From: Candidatus Nomurabacteria bacterium
Lineage (GTDB): Bacteria; Patescibacteriota; Minisyncoccia; Phycocordibacterales; UBA9973
Direction: 5' to 3'
DNA: 36,665 nucleotides
NCBI GenBank assembly: GCA_943356395.1
Contig: CALRFC010000001.1
Span: forward strand, 1 to 36,665
The notes beneath the pieces were generated by a model. The model was given only the letters and a program-made list of their open reading frames with translations, searched no databases and was not told the DNA's origin. Positions 8,519 to 36,665 of the stretch are shown here, one piece after another. A program made the position numbers and the translations under genes. The number at the start of each line of letters is the position of its first letter. Position 1 is the stretch's first letter.

Positions 8519-10510
8519 ATGAAAAATATTACAAAAATTGCAGTCGCAGTTGCATTCGTTGCAATCTTCACCGTTTTTGTTGGACACACCAAGGCCGCTA
8601 CATACGACCTCGGAACTTCAACACTTAAGGTAGGTTCAACAGGAATGTATGTGACTAATCTTCAGACAGCTCTCAATGCAAACGGCGCGACTTTGACCGC
8701 AGACGGTCACTTCGGCCCGATGACCAAGGCTGCTGCTATGGCTTACCAAGCTTCTCATGGTCTTACTGCCGACGGTCTCGTTGGTGCAAAAACCAAGGCG
8801 GCTTTGAACGGCGGATCAACTCCGGCAGCAGGATGCCCGGCTGGATACACATGTACGCCAGCAGGCGGAACGCCTCCGGTTACGCCAGCAGGCGGAACGC
8901 CTCCGGTTCTCACTGGAACAGCTGGTAACATCGACACCGACACTGTCATCGGAGGATTCTCCGGCGAACAGGTTGGTGCAGGTGACACTGGTCACCAGGT
9001 TCTCGGCGTTCAGTACAAAGCTTCGGCAGGCGGATCAAATGTCAGTCTGACGGCTATGACGCTTCAGTTCACCCAAGATCCGGCTTCCTCTTGTACGACA
9101 ACCGGTTCTGGTTACATGAACAAGTACTTCGCTGGCGTTGCGGTATGGCAGGGTTCTACGAAAGTCGGTTCAGCAAATGCTGGCGATTTCGGTCAGAACA
9201 CCAGCTCTTCTTACTGTAACTACATCTATTCGAAGACAGTTAATCTTTCCGGCGCGAATATCGTTGCTGGTCAGACATCAAACTTCTATGTTTCAGTTGA
9301 CGCTCTTCCGGTTATTGATTCCAACAACCTCGGAGCAAGCACTGTCAACAAGTGGGAAGTTGCTATCACCAGCATCCGCTTCAGCGATGGTACTGGCGCA
9401 CAGCTCACCTACACGCCTTCAACAAGCACTACTGGTCTCGTAAACTCAAGCGTAACGAATTACTTCAATTTCGTTTCAACGGCTAACGCGAACAACATCA
9501 AGTTGACTGTTTCTACAGATCCGGCCAACCAGAATGCACATGTTGTTCCTGTTTCGCTCACTTCACAGACCAACAATGTTGAGCTCTTGAAGTTCAAGCT
9601 TGCTGCGCAAGGTCAGAAGATTCACATTGATAAATTGGCGACACAGCTTACATCCTCATCTGTCGGTCTCGGCTCGATCACCAGCAATGTTCATCTTTTG
9701 ATGGGTTCGACTGAACTCAATTCACAGCTCGTTACTTCGACATCTTCCACAACGACAACGACATTCAACAACTTGAATCTCGACATCGCCGCTGGAACAT
9801 CGCCGACATTCAGCATCACTGCTGATATCAACGGCTTGACTGGAAACTATGTTGCAGGCGAAACGCTTGCGGCGTCTATTCCGACATTGAGCAGCGTAGG
9901 TATCGTTACGGCAACTGATCAGAACAGCAACAACCTTTCTGGTACTGCTCAATTGACAGGTTCCGTTTCTAGCCACAATATCTCTCTCTACAATGTTGGT
10001 ATTCAGGTTAATCCGGGAACAGTGACTGCGACTCACACGGGTGTTTCCTACTCCGGCGCGTCTGATACGGCAACCTACAAGGTTTCCTTCAACGTAACGG
10101 CATTCGGAGGCGCTGTATACCTCGCGTCATCTTCCATCCTTGGAAATACTTCGACTTCTTCGACGACGAACAAAGTTACATTTGTCATCGCGAAGAGCTC
10201 GGCTCCGACAACCGGTATCACTACGGTATCCGGCACGAGCACAACCATGACGGTTGATAGCTTCAACGGCGGCAGCGGTTCCAACATCGGAACAGATTCT
10301 GCTACCGGAAACTATCTCTTGAACGATGGCGACACCGCAACCTTTACCGGAACGCTTGTTCAGACGAACAACAACGGTGCGGGTCAGTATCGCGCATGGC
10401 TCAACAACGTCGCATGGGGCACTGGCACAACGACGGCAGCAACGATCTACAACTTCAACTTGGGCTCTGGAAACAATGCCTACACGACCGGCTACATTGC
10501 GTTGCAATAA
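8519..10510 (+). CDS. Secreted or membrane-anchored cell-surface protein: peptidoglycan-binding domain, Pro-rich linker and a long Ser/Thr/Asn-rich beta region
   Basis: N-terminal signal/anchor (IAVAVAFVAIFTVFVGHTKA). PG_binding_1-like motif (VTNLQTALNANG...ADGHFGPMTKAAAMAYQASHGLTADGLVGAKT). Tandem TPAGGTPPV x2. About 500 aa of low-complexity, beta-strand-like sequence. Confidence 0.85.
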   Translation: MKNITKIAVAVAFVAIFTVFVGHTKAATYDLGTSTLKVGSTGMYVTNLQTALNANGATLTADGHFGPMTKAAAMAYQASHGLTADGLVGAKTKAALNGGSTPAAGCPAGYTCTPAGGTPPVTPAGGTPPVLTGTAGNIDTDTVIGGFSGEQVGAGDTGHQVLGVQYKASAGGSNVSLTAMTLQFTQDPASSCTTTGSGYMNKYFAGVAVWQGSTKVGSANAGDFGQNTSSSYCNYIYSKTVNLSGANIVAGQTSNFYVSVDALPVIDSNNLGASTVNKWEVAITSIRFSDGTGAQLTYTPSTSTTGLVNSSVTNYFNFVSTANANNIKLTVSTDPANQNAHVVPVSLTSQTNNVELLKFKLAAQGQKIHIDKLATQLTSSSVGLGSITSNVHLLMGSTELNSQLVTSTSSTTTTTFNNLNLDIAAGTSPTFSITADINGLTGNYVAGETLAASIPTLSSVGIVTATDQNSNNLSGTAQLTGSVSSHNISLYNVGIQVNPGTVTATHTGVSYSGASDTATYKVSFNVTAFGGAVYLASSSILGNTSTSSTTNKVTFVIAKSSAPTTGITTVSGTSTTMTVDSFNGGSGSNIGTDSATGNYLLNDGDTATFTGTLVQTNNNGAGQYRAWLNNVAWGTGTTTAATIYNFNLGSGNNAYTTGYIALQ

Positions 10511-10542
10511 AGCTCAGTCGCTGTACAAAAGTTGTACTTCAC

Positions 10543-10574
10543 AAAAAACCACCTTCGGGTGGTTTTTTGTTTTT
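10543..10574 (+). terminator. Intrinsic terminator after the surface-protein gene
   Basis: AAAAAACCACC-TTCG-GGTGGTTTTTTGTTTTTT. Confidence 0.85.
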
Positions 10575-10674
10575 TCATTCTGAATACCACGGTGCGAATA
10601 AATTTAAAATCTTCCCCTTAGCCTCGCGCGCTGCCTTTACAAAAGAGCATGCGCGCGTATATAATCCTCTGTAT

Positions 10675-12744
10675 ATGGAAAACACTTCAATACAAAGACC
10701 ATGGCTCGCCAAGATAGTCCTTTTTCTTCTCGGCGCGGCTGTTTTTGTTCCGCCGCTTTTGGTCATTCCGCATACATTCTTTATCTTTATCAACTCAAAA
10801 ACCTCCTTTTTTATCGGTATTGCCGAACTCGCATTTTTTTGTTACATATTCCTCGCCCTTTTTTATCCTGCATACCGGCCCAAGAAGAATATCGTCACAT
10901 GGGGATTTTTGGGGTTTGTCGCCGTTTCCGTACTAAGTGCCATAGTTAGCGTTTATCCACAATTCTCCTTCTGGTCCGGAGCGGAGCGTGCCGACGGCGT
11001 GATGCTGCTCATCCATATATTTCTTTTTTTCCTTGTCTGCACTTCTGTGATCAAATCAAAAAAAGAGCTGCATACCTTGCTCTGGGTTTCTGTCTTTACC
11101 GCAACGATCAATACTCTTGCGATTTGGCTCGGGCCGGGAGGATTCAAGGCCTATCTCTCGCTCTTTCATTCCGATCAAAACATCGGAGGATTTACCGGCA
11201 ACGAGCTCTTTGCCGGAGCGTACACTCTCTTCAATGTCTTTTTTGCCGCCTACCTTTTCTTCGATTCAAAAAAGAAAGGTTCTCGCATGCTTTCGGGCAT
11301 ACTTTTTCTGCTGATGCTCTTCTCGCCCATATTTTTTAATTTCGGCATTCTCTCCGGTGCGGTCAATCTGAAAGAAATCCTGCACAATCCGATTGTTTTG
11401 ATCGGGCGCGCGCGCGCGTCCACGATAGGTCTCGGACTTGCCGGCATCTTCACCTTCTTCTTATTTTTTGGGAATCACGCTAAAAAAGCGATTCGTTTCG
11501 GATCGCGCGCGCTTGCCGGTGCAACGCTTGCCGCAATCATGATCTCAATCATCCTTCTCATGACTCCCGGCACGCGCTTGCACGATTGGTTCGGCAAAGA
11601 GACTGCAGGCTACAGATATATTTATTGGCATCAAGCGATACAAGGATGGAAAGATCATCCTATCCTCGGTTGGGGACCGGGCACTTTCCGCATGGTAACA
11701 GCAAAATATTTCGATCCGGCCGTACTTGCCACTGTGAGCCAGAATCAGATCATCGGCGAACCATGGAATGACAAGCCGCACAGCATTATTCTGGACGTAC
11801 TTGTCCATACCGGCATTTTGGGCCTTATTTCCTACGCAGGAATCTTTTTCACTTGCCTTTTCGCATTGTGGCGAAAAACAAGTTTGCCGCATTATGCCAA
11901 GTCCTTGTTTTCCGGACTCCTCTTGGCGTATGTCCTGCAGGGCCTTACGATCTTCGATGTCATGGTTTCCTATTTGATGCTCGGTACGGCTTTGGCGGTT
12001 ATCGCCATAATTACCGCAAAAGAGGAGACCGGCAAAGAGCAAGGAAAGATCTTTCAACTTTCTAAAAAAGCGAAGAACGGCATAGCCATCGCGCTCTTCA
12101 TTATCGGATTCTTTTCCATACGCTACTTCGCATACGAGCCGTTGCATGAAGCGCGTCAGCGTTTCGTCCTGCCGGATTTGCCGCCCGCCGAACGGGCAGG
12201 CAAATATAAAATCGTGCGCGACATCTCTCCATTCGGCGGATCCGTCGACGAGGCGAATTATGCCGACTTGGTCTACATCAGCTATTTGGAACATCTCGAT
12301 AGCATTGCAAATCAGAAAGATCAGCTGCAATTTATCCGAGACATGGACGGACTGATTGCGGATGTCGAAGAGTCTTTCGGCAAGAATGGAATGACCTATG
12401 TCGGCGCGCTCACCGTGAGCCGCCTGTACAATCTGCGCTACATGCTTGCCGCAACAGACGACCAAAATCTTCTTTCAGAGATGGAAAAGTATGCGAAAAT
12501 AACCCTCGATCTTTCCCCGAACAATCCGCAGAGCTACTGGGCGGAAGCGCAGCCGCTCATTTACGAGCGCAAGTATAAAGAAGCCATGGAGGTTTTGGAA
12601 AAAGGACTCGCTATAAATCCCAAAGTCGCACCGACGCACGAAATCATCATCCGACTCGCTCTTCTCATGGGCGACCGGCAACTCGTGCTTGAAAAATACA
12701 AGCGCGCGCAGAAAGAATTGCCGGGGATCGCTTTCCCGCACTAA
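10675..12744 (+). CDS. Polytopic Wzy_C / O-antigen-ligase-family membrane protein with a C-terminal TPR-like domain (candidate O-oligosaccharyltransferase or polymerase)
   Basis: 689 aa from ATG 10675, the first in-frame ATG after the upstream terminator. More than 10 TM helices, a periplasmic loop with HSIILDVLVHTGILGL, and a soluble helical-repeat tail. Confidence 0.8.
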   Translation: MENTSIQRPWLAKIVLFLLGAAVFVPPLLVIPHTFFIFINSKTSFFIGIAELAFFCYIFLALFYPAYRPKKNIVTWGFLGFVAVSVLSAIVSVYPQFSFWSGAERADGVMLLIHIFLFFLVCTSVIKSKKELHTLLWVSVFTATINTLAIWLGPGGFKAYLSLFHSDQNIGGFTGNELFAGAYTLFNVFFAAYLFFDSKKKGSRMLSGILFLLMLFSPIFFNFGILSGAVNLKEILHNPIVLIGRARASTIGLGLAGIFTFFLFFGNHAKKAIRFGSRALAGATLAAIMISIILLMTPGTRLHDWFGKETAGYRYIYWHQAIQGWKDHPILGWGPGTFRMVTAKYFDPAVLATVSQNQIIGEPWNDKPHSIILDVLVHTGILGLISYAGIFFTCLFALWRKTSLPHYAKSLFSGLLLAYVLQGLTIFDVMVSYLMLGTALAVIAIITAKEETGKEQGKIFQLSKKAKNGIAIALFIIGFFSIRYFAYEPLHEARQRFVLPDLPPAERAGKYKIVRDISPFGGSVDEANYADLVYISYLEHLDSIANQKDQLQFIRDMDGLIADVEESFGKNGMTYVGALTVSRLYNLRYMLAATDDQNLLSEMEKYAKITLDLSPNNPQSYWAEAQPLIYERKYKEAMEVLEKGLAINPKVAPTHEIIIRLALLMGDRQLVLEKYKRAQKELPGIAFPH

Positions 12745-30680: not shown

Positions 30681-31169
30681 ATGATTACAAAAGAAAAGAA
30701 AACTCAATTGATAAAAGATATCGAGGCGATGCTCAAAAGCGCCGCATCAATCGTCTTCGTCAAATTCGACAAGCTCACGGTCAAAGACGCGAATGCGCTT
30801 CGCCGAGGGCTCGACAAGGAGAATGTCGCGTACAAGGTTTCCAAGAAAACGCTCCTGAAGCGCGTGCTCGATACGAAAGGATTCGAGGGTTCTCTGCCGG
30901 ACCTGGAAGGCGAGATCGCGATCGCCGCATCTTCCGACCCGCTCTCCGCGGCGCGCGAAGTGTATGCGTTCCAATCCGCGCACAAGGACAACATCTCGAT
31001 CGTCGGCGGCGTTTTCGACGGGAAGTATCAGGACAAGGCGCAGATGATTTCCATCGCGACGATTCCTCCGCTCCAAACGCTCCGCGGCATGTTCGTGAAT
31101 ATTATAAACTCACCCATTCAGCGATTGGTCATCGGACTCAATGCTGTTGCTGGGAAGAAAAGTGCGTAA
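30681..31169 (+). CDS. rplJ: 50S ribosomal protein L10
   Basis: 162 aa with KEKKTQLIKDIEAMLKSAASIVFVKFDKLTVKDANALRR. Followed by rplL. Confidence 0.93.
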   Translation: MITKEKKTQLIKDIEAMLKSAASIVFVKFDKLTVKDANALRRGLDKENVAYKVSKKTLLKRVLDTKGFEGSLPDLEGEIAIAASSDPLSAAREVYAFQSAHKDNISIVGGVFDGKYQDKAQMISIATIPPLQTLRGMFVNIINSPIQRLVIGLNAVAGKKSA

Positions 31170-31190
31170 ATTATAAATAATAAACTAGGC

Positions 31191-31251
31191 TTTAGGCACT
31201 AGGCTCTAGCAAAAATGCTAATGCCTAACGCCTAGTAGCCTAGTGCCTAAA
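31191..31251. repeat. TAGGC-word hairpin between rplJ and rplL
   Basis: TTTAGGCACTAGGC (31191-31204) is the perfect reverse complement of GCCTAGTGCCTAAA (31238-31251). Confidence 0.7.
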
Positions 31252-31256
31252 ATATT

Positions 31257-31649
31257 ATGGAAGAAAATAAAAATGTGGAAGTTCCTGCGAAGTTCAAGGA
31301 CATCGTTTCGAAGATCGAAGAAATGTCCGTGCTTGATCTTCATGAGCTCGTGAAAGTGTTTGAAGAAAAATTCGGCGTTTCGGCCGCAGCCGTTGCCGGT
31401 CCGGCCGCCGCAGCCGCGGGCCCTGCCGCTGAAGAAAAAGACAGCTACACGGTCGTCCTTTCTGCCGCAGGCGAACAAAAAATCGCCGTGATGAAGGCAG
31501 TCAAGGAAGCTCTCGGACTCGGACTCAAGGAAGCAAAAGATCTCGTCGATGGCGCGCCGGCAACCCTCAAAGAGGGAATGAAGAAAGCCGAAGCGGAAGA
31601 ACTCAAGAAAAAGATAGAGGAAGCGGGAGGGAAAGTTGAGCTTAAATAG
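31257..31649 (+). CDS. rplL: 50S ribosomal protein L7/L12
   Basis: 130 aa with an Ala/Pro hinge ([19 protein letters not shown]) and C-terminal domain [27 protein letters not shown]...[14 protein letters not shown]. Confidence 0.95.
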
Positions 31650-31936
31650 CTCAACTTTCGGCCGGAGGCTGTCGAGCCGAGGCGTGGTCAGGCAAAATTC
31701 TAGCAAGAATTTATGCGTGACAAGTCGACTTAAAATAACAAAGTTATTTTAAGGGACTTTACGGCCGGAACGCCCGAAGGCCGCGCACAGCAGTGCGCGG
31801 AAGTGAGGCGGGTGAGACGCGAATACTTGGAGCGTCGCAAGACCTTGAGCGTTTTGTACTCAAAATGCGAAAGGTGTACAGTTCCTGTAAGGAACGCATG
31901 GCTCTGCGAGCGACGGCGAGTAGAGAACATGTGGCC
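31646..31936 (+). other. Non-coding, highly structured segment of about 300 bp between two 13-bp direct repeats at the rplL 3' end
   Basis: AAGTTGAGCTTAA occurs at 31633-31645 and 31937-31949. Internal perfect hairpins include CCGCGCAC-AGCA-GTGCGCGG (31781-31800), TAAAATAAC-AAA-GTTATTTTA (31731-31751) and GTTCC-TGTAA-GGAAC (31881-31895). Confidence 0.5.
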
Positions 31937-31975
31937 AAGTTGAGCTTAAGTAAATTAGAGATTCAAAACAAAAAA

Positions 31976-32000
31976 TCCCTGAAAATTTCGGGGGTTTTTT
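31976..32000 (+). terminator. Intrinsic terminator downstream of the second rplL-end copy
   Basis: TCCCTGAA-AAT-TTCGGGG stem (with G-U pairs) followed by TTTTTT (31995-32000). Confidence 0.6.
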
Positions 32001-32046
32001 GTACCCAAAAATGCCAAATGGCAAGACTTGCATTTTTTTCTATACG

Positions 32047-32094
32047 CTACCCGCCCGAACGACTGAATGATTGACACTGTTCAGTCGGGCGGGT
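32047..32094. repeat. CCCGCCCGA-word hairpin
   Basis: ACCCGCCCGA (32049-58) pairs with TCGGGCGGGT (32085-94), and CTGAA with TTCAG. CTACCCGCCCGAACG (32047-61) is identical to 33807-33821. Confidence 0.7.
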
Positions 32095-32118
32095 AAGCTA
32101 TACGCTATAACCTCACCC

Positions 32119-32760
32119 ATGGAAACTCTCGGAAAACTCTTCAATTCGACCGCTCGCGTGAAAATCATGCGTCTTTTCCTCTTGAATCCGAACACAGTTT
32201 TCAACACAAAAAGCATTTCATCGAGGAGCAAAGTCGCCATGGGGACGCTCCGCAAAGAGCTCTCGTTGCTCATTTCCGCAAAATTCATCAAGCGCAAGGC
32301 GCTCTCGAAGAAAAATCCGCCGGCCAAGCGGCGTTCCGGAAAAAAGAAAAAAGCGGCTTCTTCGGGCGCGGGTTTCGTCTTGGATCAGAATTTCAGCTAC
32401 GGCGATTCTCTGCGCGAGCTTTTGATCGATGCGGCTTTCATCAAGCATGAGACGCTCGCCAAGAATTTCAAGAAAGCCGGACGCGTGAAGCTCCTCATCG
32501 TCGCCGGCGTCTTCACGCACGATCCGGAGAGCCGGCTCGATCTTCTCGTCGTCGGCGACAATCTGAAGCGCCGTGCGGTCGACAGCTACATCAAGAATCT
32601 CGAAGCTGAGATCGGCAAGGAGCTCTCGTACGCGATGTTTGAGACTTCCGATTTCCTCTACCGCCGTGACATGTACGACAAGCTGGTCTGCGATGTGCTC
32701 GATTTTCCGCATGAGAAAGTGATCAATGCCGTTGGAGTGGCGAATAAGGTGAGGGAGTAG
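32119..32760 (+). CDS. Hypothetical protein: N-terminal wHTH-like region, basic linker and C-terminal minimal nucleotidyltransferase-like region
   Basis: 213 aa from ATG 32119. ARVKIMRLFLLNP...MGTLRKELSLLISAKFIKRK, KRRSGKKKK, LLIVAGVF...RLDLLVVGD. Confidence 0.55.
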   Translation: METLGKLFNSTARVKIMRLFLLNPNTVFNTKSISSRSKVAMGTLRKELSLLISAKFIKRKALSKKNPPAKRRSGKKKKAASSGAGFVLDQNFSYGDSLRELLIDAAFIKHETLAKNFKKAGRVKLLIVAGVFTHDPESRLDLLVVGDNLKRRAVDSYIKNLEAEIGKELSYAMFETSDFLYRRDMYDKLVCDVLDFPHEKVINAVGVANKVRE

Positions 32761-32763
32761 GAC

Positions 32764-32836
32764 AGAAAGTAGAAAATAGTTAGTAGTAAATAGGAATTTT
32801 GGAGTTTTTTGCATTCTTTACTATTTTCTACTTTCT
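32764..32836. repeat. AGTAG/GAAA-word hairpin with a 17-bp perfect stem
   Basis: AGAAAGTAGAAAATAGT (32764-32780) is the perfect reverse complement of ACTATTTTCTACTTTCT (32820-32836). Confidence 0.8.
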
Positions 32837-33011
32837 ACCAACTACTTACTATATTTATGGCTTTTCCACACCCGTCCCTTTCCACTCCCGAAAACTGGTA
32901 TAATGGTTTCAGACTATGGTTGGCTGTTTCGGCGGCCAAACTGTCACAATTATCAGTAATCGTAAGCCGTTTCGAAACGGCACTGCCCGTTTTAAGGGCA
33001 CATTTCATACT

Positions 33012-33692
33012 ATGTTATTACAAACATGGGGAGAAGTTCTTGGCGCATCACTCCAGAATCTTTGGTGGGGTTTCGTCAGTTTTGTCCCGAATCTCATCGT
33101 TGCGGTCGTTATTTTTATCATCGGATGGGTCATCGCTTCGGTGATCGGTCGCGTCATCGATCAGGCAATCACGGCGCTTAAGATCGACTCGCTCTTCAAG
33201 AGCGCGGGCGCAGACAAGATGTTTGAAAAGGCGGGATTCCATTTTTCCGTCGGAGGATTCTTGGGCGGACTCGTAAAGTGGTTTGTCATCGTCGTTTTCC
33301 TGATGACAGCGCTTGAAATCGTAGGGCTTACGCAAGTCAACAGCTTCCTTCGCGAAGTCGTTCTCTCGTATCTCCCGCAGGTCGTTATAGCTTCTCTCGT
33401 CCTTATCGTCGCAACAGTCATTTCTGATGCGATGAGAAAGATCGTCGAAGGTTCGGCTCGTGCGGCAAATGTCCACTCGGCAAAGCTTCTCGGCACGATC
33501 GTGAAGTATGCGATCTGGATCTTCGCTTTGATCATTGCGCTCTCCGAGCTCGGCATCGCGTCTCAATTCATGCAAATCCTCTTTACCGGCATCATTGCGA
33601 TGCTCGCGATCGCGGGCGGTCTCGCCTTCGGTTTGGGCGGAAAGGATGCGGCAGCGAAGTGCATCGAAAAGGTTCGTTCAGAGACGCACTAG
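33012..33692 (+). CDS. Membrane protein with conserved TM-helix repeats (mechanosensitive-channel-related small protein family)
   Basis: 226 aa from ATG 33012. Repeated pattern of a TM helix followed by a short amphipathic segment (NLIVAVVIFIIGWVIASVIGRVI..., VKWFVIVVFLMTALEIVGL..., KYAIWIFALIIALSELGI...). Confidence 0.65.
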   Translation: MLLQTWGEVLGASLQNLWWGFVSFVPNLIVAVVIFIIGWVIASVIGRVIDQAITALKIDSLFKSAGADKMFEKAGFHFSVGGFLGGLVKWFVIVVFLMTALEIVGLTQVNSFLREVVLSYLPQVVIASLVLIVATVISDAMRKIVEGSARAANVHSAKLLGTIVKYAIWIFALIIALSELGIASQFMQILFTGIIAMLAIAGGLAFGLGGKDAAAKCIEKVRSETH

Positions 33693-33750
33693 AGATTAGA
33701 GAAAAGTAGCTAGTAGCTAGTAGCTAGGGACTAGAAAATTCAAATACAAT

Positions 33751-33790
33751 ACAAAAGGAACGCGGCGTACGCCGCGCTCCTTTTGTATTT
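33751..33790 (+). terminator. Strong intrinsic terminator
   Basis: ACAAAAGGAACGCGGC-GTAC-GCCGCGCTCCTTTTGT (16-bp stem with 1 mismatch) followed by ATTTT. Confidence 0.85.
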
Positions 33791-33911
33791 TCCTAGAACC
33801 TAAAAACTACCCGCCCGAACGTACCGTTCGGTACAGGCGGCGAACCAAGAACCTGAATTCCCGTTTGACATTCAAGCATATATTATGGTAATTTAATGAA
33901 AATTCTTAACA

Positions 33912-34763
33912 ATGATATACACGAACAAATCAGTCAGCATCGGCGTCGATTCGATCGGGGGGAACATAACATCCTTTCAAGTCGACGGCGACCACATCTT
34001 TTTCCCACAGCAAGCGCTCAAAGAGAACAACGAACTCAAAATCCGCGGCGGAAGCCACATCTGCTTCCCGAATTTCGGAAGTCAGAAAAATCCCCAAGAT
34101 TTTAAAGTTCAAAAGCACGGTTTTTTAAGAGAAAGACCAGTGCAGATTTCTTACGGATCTTCGATGTACGCAGCTTATGTGAAGGACAATTTCTGTCGCA
34201 TAGACGGAATGGATACGGACGAAAGTTACAAATTCATCTTGTCTCACTATGAGTACAATGCAAATGAAAGAGATTTTCCTAAGTTTTTCCCTTTTTCTTT
34301 CTCACTTGACAGCACACTCTTCTTTCTTGAGAAAGGATTCGCGCAAGTTATCAAAATCTCACATTCGGGAAACAAAGATGTTGCGCGAAAATCAATTCCT
34401 ATCAATCCGGCATTTCATCCGTACATAAATACGCGGATGTCGCGGGTGGCGATAGATGGTTTGGAAAAAGAGAGAATCGGTTTCTGGAATGATTCGTCTG
34501 TGGACGGGTTGTCATACCCGATGGCGTCGCCGATCACGATTATCCGCGAAAAGATGGATCGGAAAATAAAAATGCAATTCGGCGGGCTCTTCGCGGAAGT
34601 TCCGGATGCGAGAATCGTGCTGTGGAGGAATTACAATAATTCTCCGTATTTCTGCATCGAACCGGTTGCCGGCAATTCACACAAATTCGGAACCGAATAC
34701 GGACATTTTCTTCGTCCGGATCAGGACTCCGTTTGTGCGTGGATGAAGGTCGAAGTAGAGTAA
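33912..34763 (+). CDS. Aldose 1-epimerase / hexose-6-phosphate mutarotase-like protein
   Basis: 283 aa. IRGGSHICFPNFG resembles the GG.P.CFP.FG motif of the YeaD/aldose-epimerase family. Confidence 0.6.
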   Translation: MIYTNKSVSIGVDSIGGNITSFQVDGDHIFFPQQALKENNELKIRGGSHICFPNFGSQKNPQDFKVQKHGFLRERPVQISYGSSMYAAYVKDNFCRIDGMDTDESYKFILSHYEYNANERDFPKFFPFSFSLDSTLFFLEKGFAQVIKISHSGNKDVARKSIPINPAFHPYINTRMSRVAIDGLEKERIGFWNDSSVDGLSYPMASPITIIREKMDRKIKMQFGGLFAEVPDARIVLWRNYNNSPYFCIEPVAGNSHKFGTEYGHFLRPDQDSVCAWMKVEVE

Positions 34764-34776
34764 TGAAATTGAATTT

Positions 34777-34806
34777 TAAAACCCCGCTAGTCGGGGTTTT
34801 TCTTTT
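34777..34806 (+). terminator. Intrinsic terminator
   Basis: AAAACCCCG-CTAGT-CGGGGTTTTTCTTTT. Confidence 0.85.
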
Positions 34807-34900
34807 GCATTTTCTGGTATTTTTCCCAGCCCCTAGAAACTAGAACCTAGAACCTGTCTCCCTACAAAAGATATCCCCATCGCCCGAATTCCCCGCGGGG

Positions 34901-34929
34901 TTGACTTCCAAATTGGCATCCTATATACT
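34901..34929 (+). promoter_or_regulatory. Near-consensus sigma-70 promoter
   Basis: TTGACT (34901-06), 17 nt spacer, TATACT (34924-29). Confidence 0.6.
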
Positions 34930-34935
34930 CTCCCT

Positions 34936-35020
34936 GCCGATATGAATACTAACAAAACACCCAAGCGGAATAGATAAACGCCACCTGGTGTTTTACTCTC
35001 CGCCCAAAAGGCGGTTTTTT
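34936..35020 (+). ncRNA. Candidate ~85-nt short transcript or attenuator between the promoter and the 23S leader
   Basis: The inferred TSS is followed by an AAAACACC...GGTGTTTT stem and a terminator CCGCC-CAAAA-GGCGG plus TTTTTT (35000-35020). Confidence 0.3.
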
Positions 35021-35407
35021 AGTTAGAAAAACATAGACAGCGCATTTCTTTGTTGCTTCGCTCGTTTGCTCCCGCAATGTACAGTCGTACATTTTGGTCG
35101 CAAGCCTCGCTCGCGCCTCGAACTGCACCTGCCTCTGTTTTTCTAAGAATACGACTGCACGACTGACCATTGATAACCAAATACGCTCCACCTTTGTTTA
35201 GACATGGGGTCTTTTCGGAGGATGGAGTGGCAGGAAAAATCGTCGTGCTTCACACGAATGACTAATACTCAATGACTAATATCTAAGTAGATGCGGAATT
35301 CCGCATTTCATTAGAAATTAGAAATTAGAACTTAGAAATTTCGCACGGAGTGCGACAAACGTATGTTGCAATCAGTAGTAGGCAGCGGTGTCGAAATGAT
35401 TGTAAAT

Positions 35408-35438
35408 CCCGCGCATCACACAGTGTGTGATGCGCGGG
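35408..35438 (+). repeat. Perfect 14-bp hairpin just 5' of 23S, with the same sequence module as the internal 23S insertions
   Basis: CCCGCGCATCACAC-AGT-GTGTGATGCGCGGG. Confidence 0.8.
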
Positions 35439-35608
35439 TGGTGATTCTTACATTTCCTAATAGGAAATGTAAGAGCATATGGTGGATGCCTTGGTTTTGT
35501 ATGGCGATGAAGGACGTGGTATGGCTGCGATAAGCTTCGGGGAGGTGCCTAGCAACCGTTAATCCGAAGATGTCCGAATGGGGAAACCTCATTGCGTAAA
35601 CCGCAATG

Positions 35609-35670
35609 GCGTGCTTTGCACACAGTGTTTAAATATTTAAATATTTAAATATTGCGCGCAGAGCGCGCGC
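35609..35670 (+). repeat. 23S insertion block 1 (E. coli ~130-150 region)
   Basis: Extra sequence relative to E. coli, containing ATATTTAAATATTTAAATAT (35633-35652) flanked by GC-rich palindromic arms (TGCGCGCAGAGCGCGCGC). Confidence 0.6.
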
Positions 35671-35763
35671 TCACCCGGGGAAGTAAAACATTTCAGTACC
35701 CGGAGGAAAAGAAAACAATTGTTATTCTCCTAGTAGCGGCGAGCGAAAAGGGAAGAGCCCAAA

Positions 35764-35837
35764 CTGCGCATCACATTGCATGTGATGCTGATATTTAAAT
35801 ATTTAAATATCAGCATCGCGCGTAGCGTGATGCGCAG
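35764..35837 (+). repeat. 23S insertion block 2 (E. coli ~270-280 region)
   Basis: Closed by CTGCGCATCAC...GTGATGCGCAG. Internal perfect palindrome GATGCTGATATTTAAATATTTAAATATCAGCATC. The 20-mer lies at 35791-35810. Confidence 0.65.
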
Positions 35838-36140
35838 GGTTGTAAGGTGACGATGTAGATTTATCTAGAAGAGTTACAAAATATTTTGTTAGCGGAAGGC
35901 GCTGGAAAGCGCCGCCATAGAGGGTGATGGCCCCGTACGCGAAAATAAAATATCTCTTTGGTCGTCATTCTTGAGTACTTCGAGACACGAATAGCTCGGA
36001 GGAATCCACCGGAACTAACCGGTAAGGCTAAATACATACAAAAACCGATAGTGAACTAGTACCGCGAGGGAAAGGTGAAAAGAACCCCGATAAGGGGAGT
36101 GAAATAGATCTGAAACCATATGCTTACAAAGAGTCGGAGC

Positions 36141-36224
36141 GGACGCATCACACAGTGTGTGATGCGATATTTCAATATTTAAATATTTAAATATCAGCAT
36201 CGCGCTTTGCGCGATGCGCCCGTC
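36141..36224 (+). repeat. 23S insertion block 3 (helix 25 region, E. coli ~540-550)
   Basis: GACGCATCACACAGTGTGTGATGCG, then the 20-mer (36175-36194), then CAGCATCGCGCTTTGCGCGATGCGC. Confidence 0.65.
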
Positions 36225-36665
36225 ACGGCGTGCCTATTGAAGAATGAGCCAACGAGTTTATGCATATTGCGAGGCTAAGTCTTATAAACGGATGGAGCCG
36301 CAGGGAAACCAAGTGTTAATAGCGCGATTAAGTAGTATGCATAAGACCCGAAGCCAGGTGAGCTACCCATGAGCAGGTTGAAGTTTATCGAAAGATAGAT
36401 GGAGGACCGAACCGGTGAGCCGTTCAACACTCTCGGATGACTTGTGGGTTGGAGTGAAAAGCTTATCGAACCTGGTAATAGCTGGTTCTCTCCGAAATAG
36501 CTTTAGGGTTAGCGTCGCGTGTTCCTTTTGGGGGTAGAGCACTGGAAGATTTCGACAGGGAGCAATCTCGCGAAATCTATCAAACTCCGAATACCAGAAG
36601 TCAAAAACGCGGCAGTTAGACGGCGGGGGCGAAGCTCCGTTCGTCAAAAGGGAAACAGCCCAGAT

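Follow-up and report, generated by a model that had tools for sequence, protein, structure and literature searches.

Palindromic cassettes of shared modular design at helix tips of a Candidatus Nomurabacteria 23S rRNA gene, putative intervening sequences of Paceibacteria

The DNA analysed in this study (the window) comprises positions 1 to 36,665 of contig CALRFC010000001.1 from the Candidatus Nomurabacteria bacterium assembly GCA_943356395.1. Its right-hand end contains the 5' part of a 23S rRNA gene, in which three extra blocks of palindromic sequence are found, and a related hairpin is located in the leader of the gene. The gene was detected and the blocks were placed by alignment to the Rfam covariance model LSU_rRNA_bacteria (RF02541), with a MAFFT alignment against E. 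coli rrlH as a second placement. An earlier note on this DNA had described three extra blocks in domain I of the 23S rRNA, and the covariance-model alignment confirmed all of them and placed each one exactly at the tip of a hairpin (Table 1). The boundaries given there required correction, since the gene starts at about 35459 instead of 35481, and its part in the window extends to E. coli position ~991 instead of ~830. The assignment of block 3 to helix 25 (H25), a classical site of 23S intervening sequences (IVSs), was correct, and a relative designated L040 carries a cassette also at H45, the other classical site. At the H25 tip the related locus L036 reads GCGGUCG-CUUG-CGACCGU, and the window has the inserted block instead of CUUG.

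The three blocks share sequence with each other. The 20-mer ATATTTAAATATTTAAATAT, reported in the earlier note, is present without mismatches in all of them (35633-52, 35791-810 and 36175-94) and nowhere else in the window, with a chance expectation of 0.00. Blocks 2 and 3 are similar over a 45-nt stretch (35791-835 and 36175-219, 93% identity) and have both flanking 21-nt hairpins in common, as had been proposed, except that the 5' module of block 3 begins with ACGCATC and not with GCGCATC. The same hairpin module was said to recur just upstream of the gene, and the 21-nt hairpin GCATCACACAGTGTGTGATGC is indeed found exactly both in the leader (35413-33) and in block 3 (36145-65). The chance expectation of the 20-mer and the 93% identity of the 45-nt stretch rule out chance or convergent similarity. 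As judged from these sequences, a single modular palindromic cassette lacking open reading frames (ORFs) is present in three homologous copies, the blocks, which are not independent expansions of separate helices, and the leader hairpin is a solo copy of its 5' hairpin module.

The blocks have a common anatomy: a GC-rich hairpin is followed by a perfect palindrome of A and T only, built of tandem ATTTAAAT units, and by a second GC-rich hairpin. In blocks 2 and 3 the DNA form of the 5' hairpin (Hp5) is GCATCACA-loop-TGTGATGC, and that of the 3' hairpin (Hp3) is GCATCGCGC-loop-GCGYGATGC. Written as RNA, the cassette consists of Hp5 (GCAUCACA-loop-UGUGAUGC), an A/U-only palindromic centre (AUUUAAAU)n and Hp3 (GCAUCGYGC-loop-GCGYGAUGC). 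Unlike these, the arms of block 1 are of the GCGUGC and GCGCGC type. The helices whose tips the cassettes replace are solvent-exposed.

Table 1. Coordinates of the 23S rRNA gene, its leader elements and the three inserted blocks in the window.
Feature	Coordinates	Strand	Remarks
Promoter-like site TTGACT-17-TATACT, putative pre-23S transcript start	34901..34929	+	consensus match only
Second repeat/palindrome module in the leader, AATGACTAAT / ATTAGAAATTAGAA	35255..35345	+	long imperfect palindrome; also 34835-34857
Leader hairpin, solo Hp5 copy	35408..35438	+	8 nt upstream of the 5'-terminal hairpin; perfect 15-nt arms
Perfect 14-bp hairpin, leader paired with the first ~14 nt of mature 23S	35446..35474	+	processing context, not part of a cassette
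23S rRNA gene, 5' part (domain I and start of domain II)	35459..36665	+	813 bits against Rfam RF02541 (model positions 1-1032); truncated where the window ends
Block 1, replaces the H10 tip	35608..35671	+	64 nt; model 163-169 (H10 = model 152-177), 38 nt vs 7; after E. coli 158
Block 1, 5' arm	35609-35627		GCGTGC-type + CACACAGTG
Block 1, AT-only core	35628-35653
Block 1, 3' arm	35654-35670		GCGCGC-AGA-GCGCGC
Block 2, replaces an H15-type hairpin (none in E. coli)	35764..35837	+	74 nt; model ~283-288 (hairpin 274-295), ~55 extra nt; E. coli ~275-285
Block 2, Hp5	35768-35788
Block 2, AT core	35791-35810
Block 2, Hp3	35813-35833
Block 3, replaces the H25 terminal loop	36141..36221	+	81 nt; model ~583 (H25 ~573-600), ~70 extra nt; after E. 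coli 544
Block 3, Hp5	36145-36165
Block 3, AT core	36167-36194		one C
Block 3, Hp3	36197-36217

The possibility that the blocks are an assembly artefact was ruled out by an independent assembly, ENA ERZ27280321, whose contig k141_279975 (locus L001) is identical to the window from upstream of the promoter-like site through the leader and all three blocks. The occurrence of related cassettes in JGI, ENA and Hainich data also counters this possibility. Further downstream, from position 3303 of L001 (window 36327 onward), the identity of the two sequences falls to ~90%, and the differences look compensatory and are located in helices. Either two strains or species were joined in a chimeric assembly, or the 23S gene is recombinant.

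Blocks 1, 2 and 3 are predicted to fold as near-perfect hairpins of -37.3, -51.3 and -45.3 kcal/mol, with z-scores of -5.5, -9.9 and -5.3, respectively. The leader element folds likewise, and the z-scores of the blocks and the leader range from -5.3 to -9.9. The arms of the blocks are 30-37 nt long and 80-84% complementary, giving predicted folds of about -34 to -52 kcal/mol; for the cassettes of relatives the predicted values are -50 to -82 kcal/mol. The duplex formed by the 5' and 3' arms is more stable than two separate arm hairpins in 7 of 8 cassettes, the two forms being equal in block 3, and folding predictions gave the long hairpin as the structure of lowest energy in 7 of 8 cassettes. 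The H45 cassette of L040 has a three-hairpin fold as its minimum-energy structure. Regarding covariation, 96.9% of the intra-arm cells of 13 arms pair and 6 of 9 pairs have changed on both sides, and the arm loops covary between the arms (UGC/GUA, GGA/UUC and GGG/UUC). Both the long-hairpin and the three-hairpin forms are therefore supported by these models, and covariation does not choose between them. In searches against Rfam, the blocks gave sub-threshold matches only, all to pre-miRNA hairpin families, which points to a generic RNase III-class shape. No match of the blocks to group I or group II introns was found in Rfam even at E<=5, and with 62-84 nt the blocks are too short for such introns.

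The rRNA loci of relatives were obtained in three ways: by a metagenome scan with the core, through homologues of the MscS-like protein encoded next to the rRNA gene, and through homologues of a spurious ORF overlapping H25. The latter search, made with one ORF from the window 23S gene, yielded loci L037-L040; an exact look-up of spurious ORFs from this gene returned no recorded entry. In total, nine related 23S or 16S loci were compared with the window, which carries cassettes at H10, H15 and H25 and a solo Hp5 in the leader. The closest relative, L028 (GCA_964634365.1), with an MscS 74-80% identical to that of the window, has ordinary short H10 and H15 and no cassette, and its contig stops before H25. 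No cassette is present in the nearly full 23S gene of L036, where the H15 site is occupied by a 20-nt hairpin. At the site of block 1, L028, L035 and L036 have an ordinary H10 of 18-25 nt. Two loci carry a cassette at H25 only: in L035 its arms are degenerate and its centre is purine/pyrimidine-rich, and in L037 the arms are identical to the H15 arms of the window and enclose a different AT-rich centre. Four cassettes with long AT-rich centres are found in L040, at H10, H15, H25 and H45; the GCATC-type arm pair is present at H10, H25 and H45, the arms at H15 are diverged, and a further Hp5 is located near E. coli ~2200. In L016, AT-core cassettes occupy the leader of the 23S gene, the tip of H31 at E. 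coli ~652 and, at E. coli ~927, the 3' strand of H38; H15 (a 20-nt hairpin) and H25 of this locus are free of cassettes, and its H10 insert is unrelated. An AT-core cassette with arms resembling those of block 1 is present at H15 of L021. The 16S loci are also involved, as L007 contains an AT-core cassette at the tip of helix h44, and in L020 an AT core is located 10 nt past the 3' end of the 16S gene and a second one ~80 nt further. The distribution of the cassettes is sporadic, their sites are variable, and in the sequence examined they are limited to rRNA loci.

Comparison of the H15 arms of the window with the H25 arms of L037 and with Hp5 of the L040 H45 cassette showed identity at 19-21 of 21 positions, the centres being different. 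The 845 columns of 23S sequence that the window has in common with L037 and L040 are only 80-83% identical among these organisms, and their MscS proteins are 41-63% identical. A neutral helix tip is not expected to be so conserved, so the conservation of the arms points to a sequence-specific constraint or to recent transfer. The compared cassettes indicate that arms and centres are separable modules that recombine, and that site occupancy changes fast. The rRNA genes of the relatives also contain insertions of other types, which agree with published surveys of the Candidate Phyla Radiation (CPR): a group II D1-D4-like segment in a 16S gene (L007, 243-327), a 736-nt LAGLIDADG-encoding insert at 23S E. 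coli ~1931 (L037) and a GIY-YIG ORF (L040, 184-444).

Outside rRNA genes and their spacers no cassettes were detected. The other 35 kb of the window contains no copy of the core, Hp5 or Hp3, and ~70 kb of related contigs contains no cassette; taken together, these partial genomes have 0 copies in ~105 kb of non-rRNA sequence versus at least 17 in ~15 kb of rRNA sequence. A palindrome scan of 254 kb of collected sequence and a hairpin-module scan of all loci revealed rRNA genes and leaders only, with one exception, an unrelated hairpin in L026. The core gave 21 metagenome matches, only 4 of which have the GC-rich arms, and those are located in rRNA loci. The non-rRNA matches were rejected as cassettes: they fell in contigs very rich in AT, in genes for Wzy_C/TPR proteins and Der, where they encode a conserved IFKYLNI peptide, or in intergenic AT runs without arms. 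An in-frame insert similar to Rickettsia palindromic elements is not supported either, since the coding 20-mer is armless and is read as IFKYLNI, which aligns with conserved positions of homologous proteins and does not look inserted. This peptide was observed in L008, L010, L012, L013, L023 and L024; Wzy_C/TPR membrane proteins of ~800 aa from Paceibacteria-like contigs have it one or two times and a Der GTPase has it once, and it is absent from the window homologue of the Wzy_C/TPR protein (10396-12744). Its recurrence probably results from a conserved peptide combined with AT-rich codons, the alternative being an ancient in-frame insertion.

Larger collections gave a similar result. Among 185,579 species genomes, the 21-mer AAATATTTAAATATCAGCATC, which comprises the core and the first 7 nt of Hp3 (CAGCATC), had 3 chance matches, none of them in rRNA, a result weakened by the fact that metagenome-assembled genomes (MAGs) often do not include rRNA genes. 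In viral contigs the core pattern had 0 matches and the Hp5 pattern 11 chance matches in coding DNA, and no cassette was found. No target-site duplication was seen when filled and empty sites were compared; the flanks of the filled sites are inverted repeats forming helix stems, not direct repeats, and the 5' flanks of the cassettes vary (TGC, GAC, CGC, CGG, GGC and GAA). Pfam scans of 17 window ORFs revealed no gene for a transposase or a REP-associated tyrosine transposase (RAYT), REP standing for repetitive extragenic palindrome. The idea of a small palindromic element that has colonised several helix tips, put forward in the earlier note, therefore holds as far as the cassettes are homologous and relatives carry them at other helices or not at all; a genome-wide mobile element is not supported, as no copy outside rRNA genes and spacers, no transposase and no target-site duplication was found in the sequence scanned. 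The note had also drawn attention to an 'IVS protein' gene at 1495-1851, and this four-helix-bundle gene of the PF05635 (23S_rRNA_IVP) family is genuine and free-standing. Its link to the blocks was rejected, because it is located 34 kb from the rRNA gene, between ssb (945-1415) and efp/recA, and near no rRNA insert.

The leader of the 23S gene contains further elements that are relevant to the cassettes. The promoter-like site would place the entire leader, including the leader hairpin, in the pre-rRNA of a putative transcript. A hairpin is kept at the position of the leader hairpin in every relative aligned, including L028, L030, L035 and L036, and its sequence differs between relatives; this position holds an Hp5 copy in the window and a full cassette in L016. 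The adjacent 14-bp hairpin, which would compete with helix 1 (pairing of the 5' and 3' ends), is kept with small covarying changes in L016, L028, L030, L035, L036, L037 and L040. The AATGACTAAT, ATTAGAAATTAGAA and ATTAGAAAT motifs of the window leader recur inside the H10 insert of L021 and in the centre of the H15 insert of L040. Since these motifs are common to the leader and to internal inserts of relatives, internal inserts and transcribed spacers share one module pool. A terminator-like hairpin with a T-run is located at 35000-35020, ~70 nt after the promoter-like site and within the presumed pre-23S leader, and Hp5 and Hp3 followed by the AT core score as terminator-like sites too.

No 16S rRNA or tRNA gene is present in the window, indicating that the 23S gene is unlinked. 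The rRNA gene is adjoined by a gene for an MscS-like protein (32916-33692), whose named homologues, at 65-70% identity, belong to MAGs of 'Candidatus Paceibacterota / Pacebacteria', and the gene order rplJ-rplL-X-MscS-23S is found again in related contigs. This assigns the window to a CPR bacterium (Patescibacteria, Paceibacteria), a clade in which rRNA insertions are well known. In the window (30681-36665) the unlinked 23S gene comes after rplJ-rplL-X-MscS and an aldose-epimerase-like gene. In L032 and L033 the position of the 23S gene is taken by a complete, insert-free 16S gene followed by a LAGLIDADG ORF. The region of ~2.4 kb between MscS and the 16S gene of L032 (10972-13350) has only small ORFs of 45-136 aa, and no Pfam or Rfam match was obtained for it.

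By definition, IVSs are sporadically occurring stem-loops that take the place of a tetraloop at H9, H25 or H45 and that RNase III cleaves (PMC4990558). The cassettes are probably, though by no means certainly, lineage-specific IVS-type elements of the rRNA genes of Paceibacteria (CPR), which would be transcribed in pre-rRNA, form hairpins of 30-40 bp and be removed by RNase III without religation, a fate that would agree with this definition. Replacement of the tip, a stem of at least ~20 bp and sporadic distribution are all found, and the sites are mixed, H25 and the H45 of L040 being canonical and H10 and H15 not. Of the five defining features counted, three are present and a fourth, location at H25 or H45, applies to some of the sites, and with excision as a prediction the cassettes would function like classical IVSs. 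The modules are also located in regions of rRNA processing, as seen from the window leader hairpin, the full cassette in the L016 leader and the core of L020 next to the 16S 3' end.

According to the proposed mechanism, the cassette would be transcribed within the pre-23S rRNA and would fold into a hairpin of 30-40 bp, from which RNase III would cut it out with no religation, as for classical IVSs and rRNA spacers. The 23S rRNA would be left fragmented into a 5.8S-like piece of ~150 nt, pieces of ~93 nt and ~303 nt, and the remainder. At the DNA level, the cassette would be copied from one permissive hairpin tip of the rRNA locus to another by template switching or ectopic palindrome conversion, possibly with lateral transfer. 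Perfect hairpins in rRNA can arise by template switching (Monttinen and Loytynoja 2022, PMC8794818), and the perfect arms and the clustering of copies in one locus would follow from local template switching or palindrome conversion. The identical arms across diverged hosts and helices suggest lateral movement or a sequence-specific factor in addition.

Several observations weigh against an IVS-type origin and fate. The canonical IVS sites do not include H10, H15, H31 or H38. Every arm forms a perfect palindrome on its own, and the six complete cassettes pair at 99.1% within arms versus 88.9% between arms; moreover, all six have the same A.C opposition in the long hairpin. In terms of the predicted structures, the long double-stranded RNA may not be the only selected form, or may not be the selected one. 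RNase III needs no conserved sequence, yet the conservation of the arms exceeds that of the rRNA core, and this suggests recent transfer or a sequence-specific factor. A more speculative reading, which we regard as doubtful, is that the cassette is a mobile element restricted to rRNA, that a dedicated enzyme with sequence specificity (nuclease, transposase or processing factor) recognises its pair of hairpins and its AT core, and that it hops between helix tips of 16S and 23S rRNA, spacers and Paceibacteria lineages.

Other explanations were considered along with the IVS-type one. A non-autonomous DNA transposon resembling miniature inverted-repeat transposable elements (MITEs), palindrome-associated transposable elements (PATEs) or REP doublets forming hairpins (REPINs) would have the terminal hairpins as ends for a transposase or endonuclease encoded elsewhere, and would insert at hairpin loops and survive only at tolerated rRNA tips and spacers. 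Such an origin would be compatible with an IVS fate at the RNA level, and it would account for the conserved termini (19-21 of the 21 positions of Hp5 and Hp3 agree between the window, L037 and L040) flanking a variable interior, for the sharp borders GCATC...GATGC, and for arms that are more conserved than the host 23S, with one arm pair present at H15 of the window, at H25 of L037 and, slightly changed, at H45 of L040. In layout, the similar hairpins at both ends resemble the ends of IS200/IS605 elements and REP doublets. The confinement of all copies to rRNA loci, the lack of target-site duplications and of a transposase among the scanned ORFs, the finding of only chance matches to the core with 7 nt of Hp3 in the species genomes, and viral contigs without cassettes all speak against the transposon, which is accordingly considered unlikely.

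Somewhat less probable again are retained expansion segments of a bacterial kind, that is, hairpins that stay unprocessed in the mature rRNA as longer surface helices, like the eukaryotic ES7L and ES5L or mycobacterial expansions. The inserts are compact and stable and lengthen existing stems. The sites also all correspond to positions of eukaryotic spacers and expansion segments: H10 to internal transcribed spacer 2 (ITS2), H15 to ES5L, H25 to ES7L, H31 to ES9L, H38 to ES12L, H45 to ES15L and h44 to ES12S. However, close relatives are without inserts or have them elsewhere, which makes a conserved structural role unlikely, the same modules are found in the leader and trailer, which are absent from mature rRNA, and RNase III normally acts on long perfect double-stranded RNA. 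A protein-dependent rRNA intron of a new class, either spliced or processed, with the two hairpins and the A/U core as a junction for a dedicated endonuclease acting with or without a ligase, comparable to archaeal bulge-helix-bulge introns, appears very improbable. The strongly conserved arm sequences, the invariant asymmetry of Hp5 and Hp3, and the three-hairpin minimum-energy structure of the L040 H45 cassette would agree with it, as would the report that CPR rRNA insertions are mostly missing from transcripts (Brown et al. 2015, as cited in PMC9297842). No candidate enzyme was identified, though, the bulge-helix-bulge geometry is absent, and the long hairpin prevails as the minimum-energy fold in all cassettes folded but that one.

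The origin and spread of IVSs have been unresolved since 1990, and their derivation as 'remnants of transposition' is still a hypothesis (PMC4990558). In CPR bacteria, short non-intron insertions at IVS sites have been noted and suspected to be RNase III-processed IVSs, and those <100 bp were left unanalysed (PMC11270868). The CPR surveys counted inserts only from 100 bp upwards, with a focus on group I and group II introns and homing endonucleases (PMC11270868, PMC9297842). A comparable module family is not described in the literature searched. The presence of one recognisable cassette at different helices of one gene and in relatives makes movement between sites traceable at the sequence level, and inserts under the 100-bp cut-off of CPR rRNA surveys (PMC11270868) form a structured family. 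If the cassette were an rRNA-restricted mobile element, it would provide sequence-level evidence, the first of its kind, on where bacterial IVSs come from and how they spread, and would imply a heavily fragmented 23S rRNA with a 5.8S-like piece. Under the IVS-type model, RNA ends should fall at defined coordinates, and a cut at the ITS2-equivalent H10 tip should release a 5.8S-like fragment. From a practical point of view, the cassette modules are a signature that can be used to mask or annotate CPR rRNA genes in metagenomes.

The H10 tip occupied by block 1 is the position of the eukaryotic ITS2, so that excision of block 1 would give a 5.8S-like fragment of ~150 nt, and the other cassette sites match positions of eukaryotic expansion segments. 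What sets the cassettes apart from ITS2 and the expansion segments of eukaryotes is their occurrence in bacteria, their tiny size, their sporadic presence among close relatives and the sequence homology between sites. With MITEs, REPINs and IS200/IS605-derived PATEs they share small size, the absence of ORFs, conserved hairpin termini, a variable AT-rich interior and occurrence at several sites; unlike those, they are found only in rRNA loci in the sequence examined, in few local copies, with no target-site duplication and no transposase or RAYT seen. Their perfect local palindromes, and the multi-base 'compensatory' differences that keep the arms paired, resemble rRNA hairpins formed by template switching (PMC8794818). 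This process fits the local perfect stems, but alone it fails to explain identical arms at different helices and in hosts with 80% 23S identity.

The insertion sequences of CPR rRNA genes (Brown et al. 2015; Tsurumaki et al. 2022 and 2024) occur in the same host clade and are, similarly, numerous within single rRNA genes. In contrast to the insertions of Tsurumaki et al. 2024, defined as at least 100 bp relative to E. coli rRNA, the blocks of 64, 74 and 81 nt are below the survey cut-off (PMC11270868), and a shared palindromic module is not described in the available parts of these surveys. Classical 23S IVSs are known from H25 and H45 of Salmonella, Helicobacter, Proteus and Campylobacter and from H9 of Alphaproteobacteria. 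Unlike them, a single cassette, bounded by conserved hairpins and centred on an AT-only palindrome, recurs here at three or more helices of one gene, is found also in 16S h44, the leader and the trailer, and occupies the non-canonical H10, H15, H31 and H38; its arms are nested palindromes, and its excision is predicted. At the same time, like the classical IVSs, the cassettes are ORF-less stem-loops of the ~60-150 nt type that replace the terminal loop of a surface helix, occur at H25 in the window and at H45 in L040, are sporadic among relatives, and have a long stem fit for RNase III.

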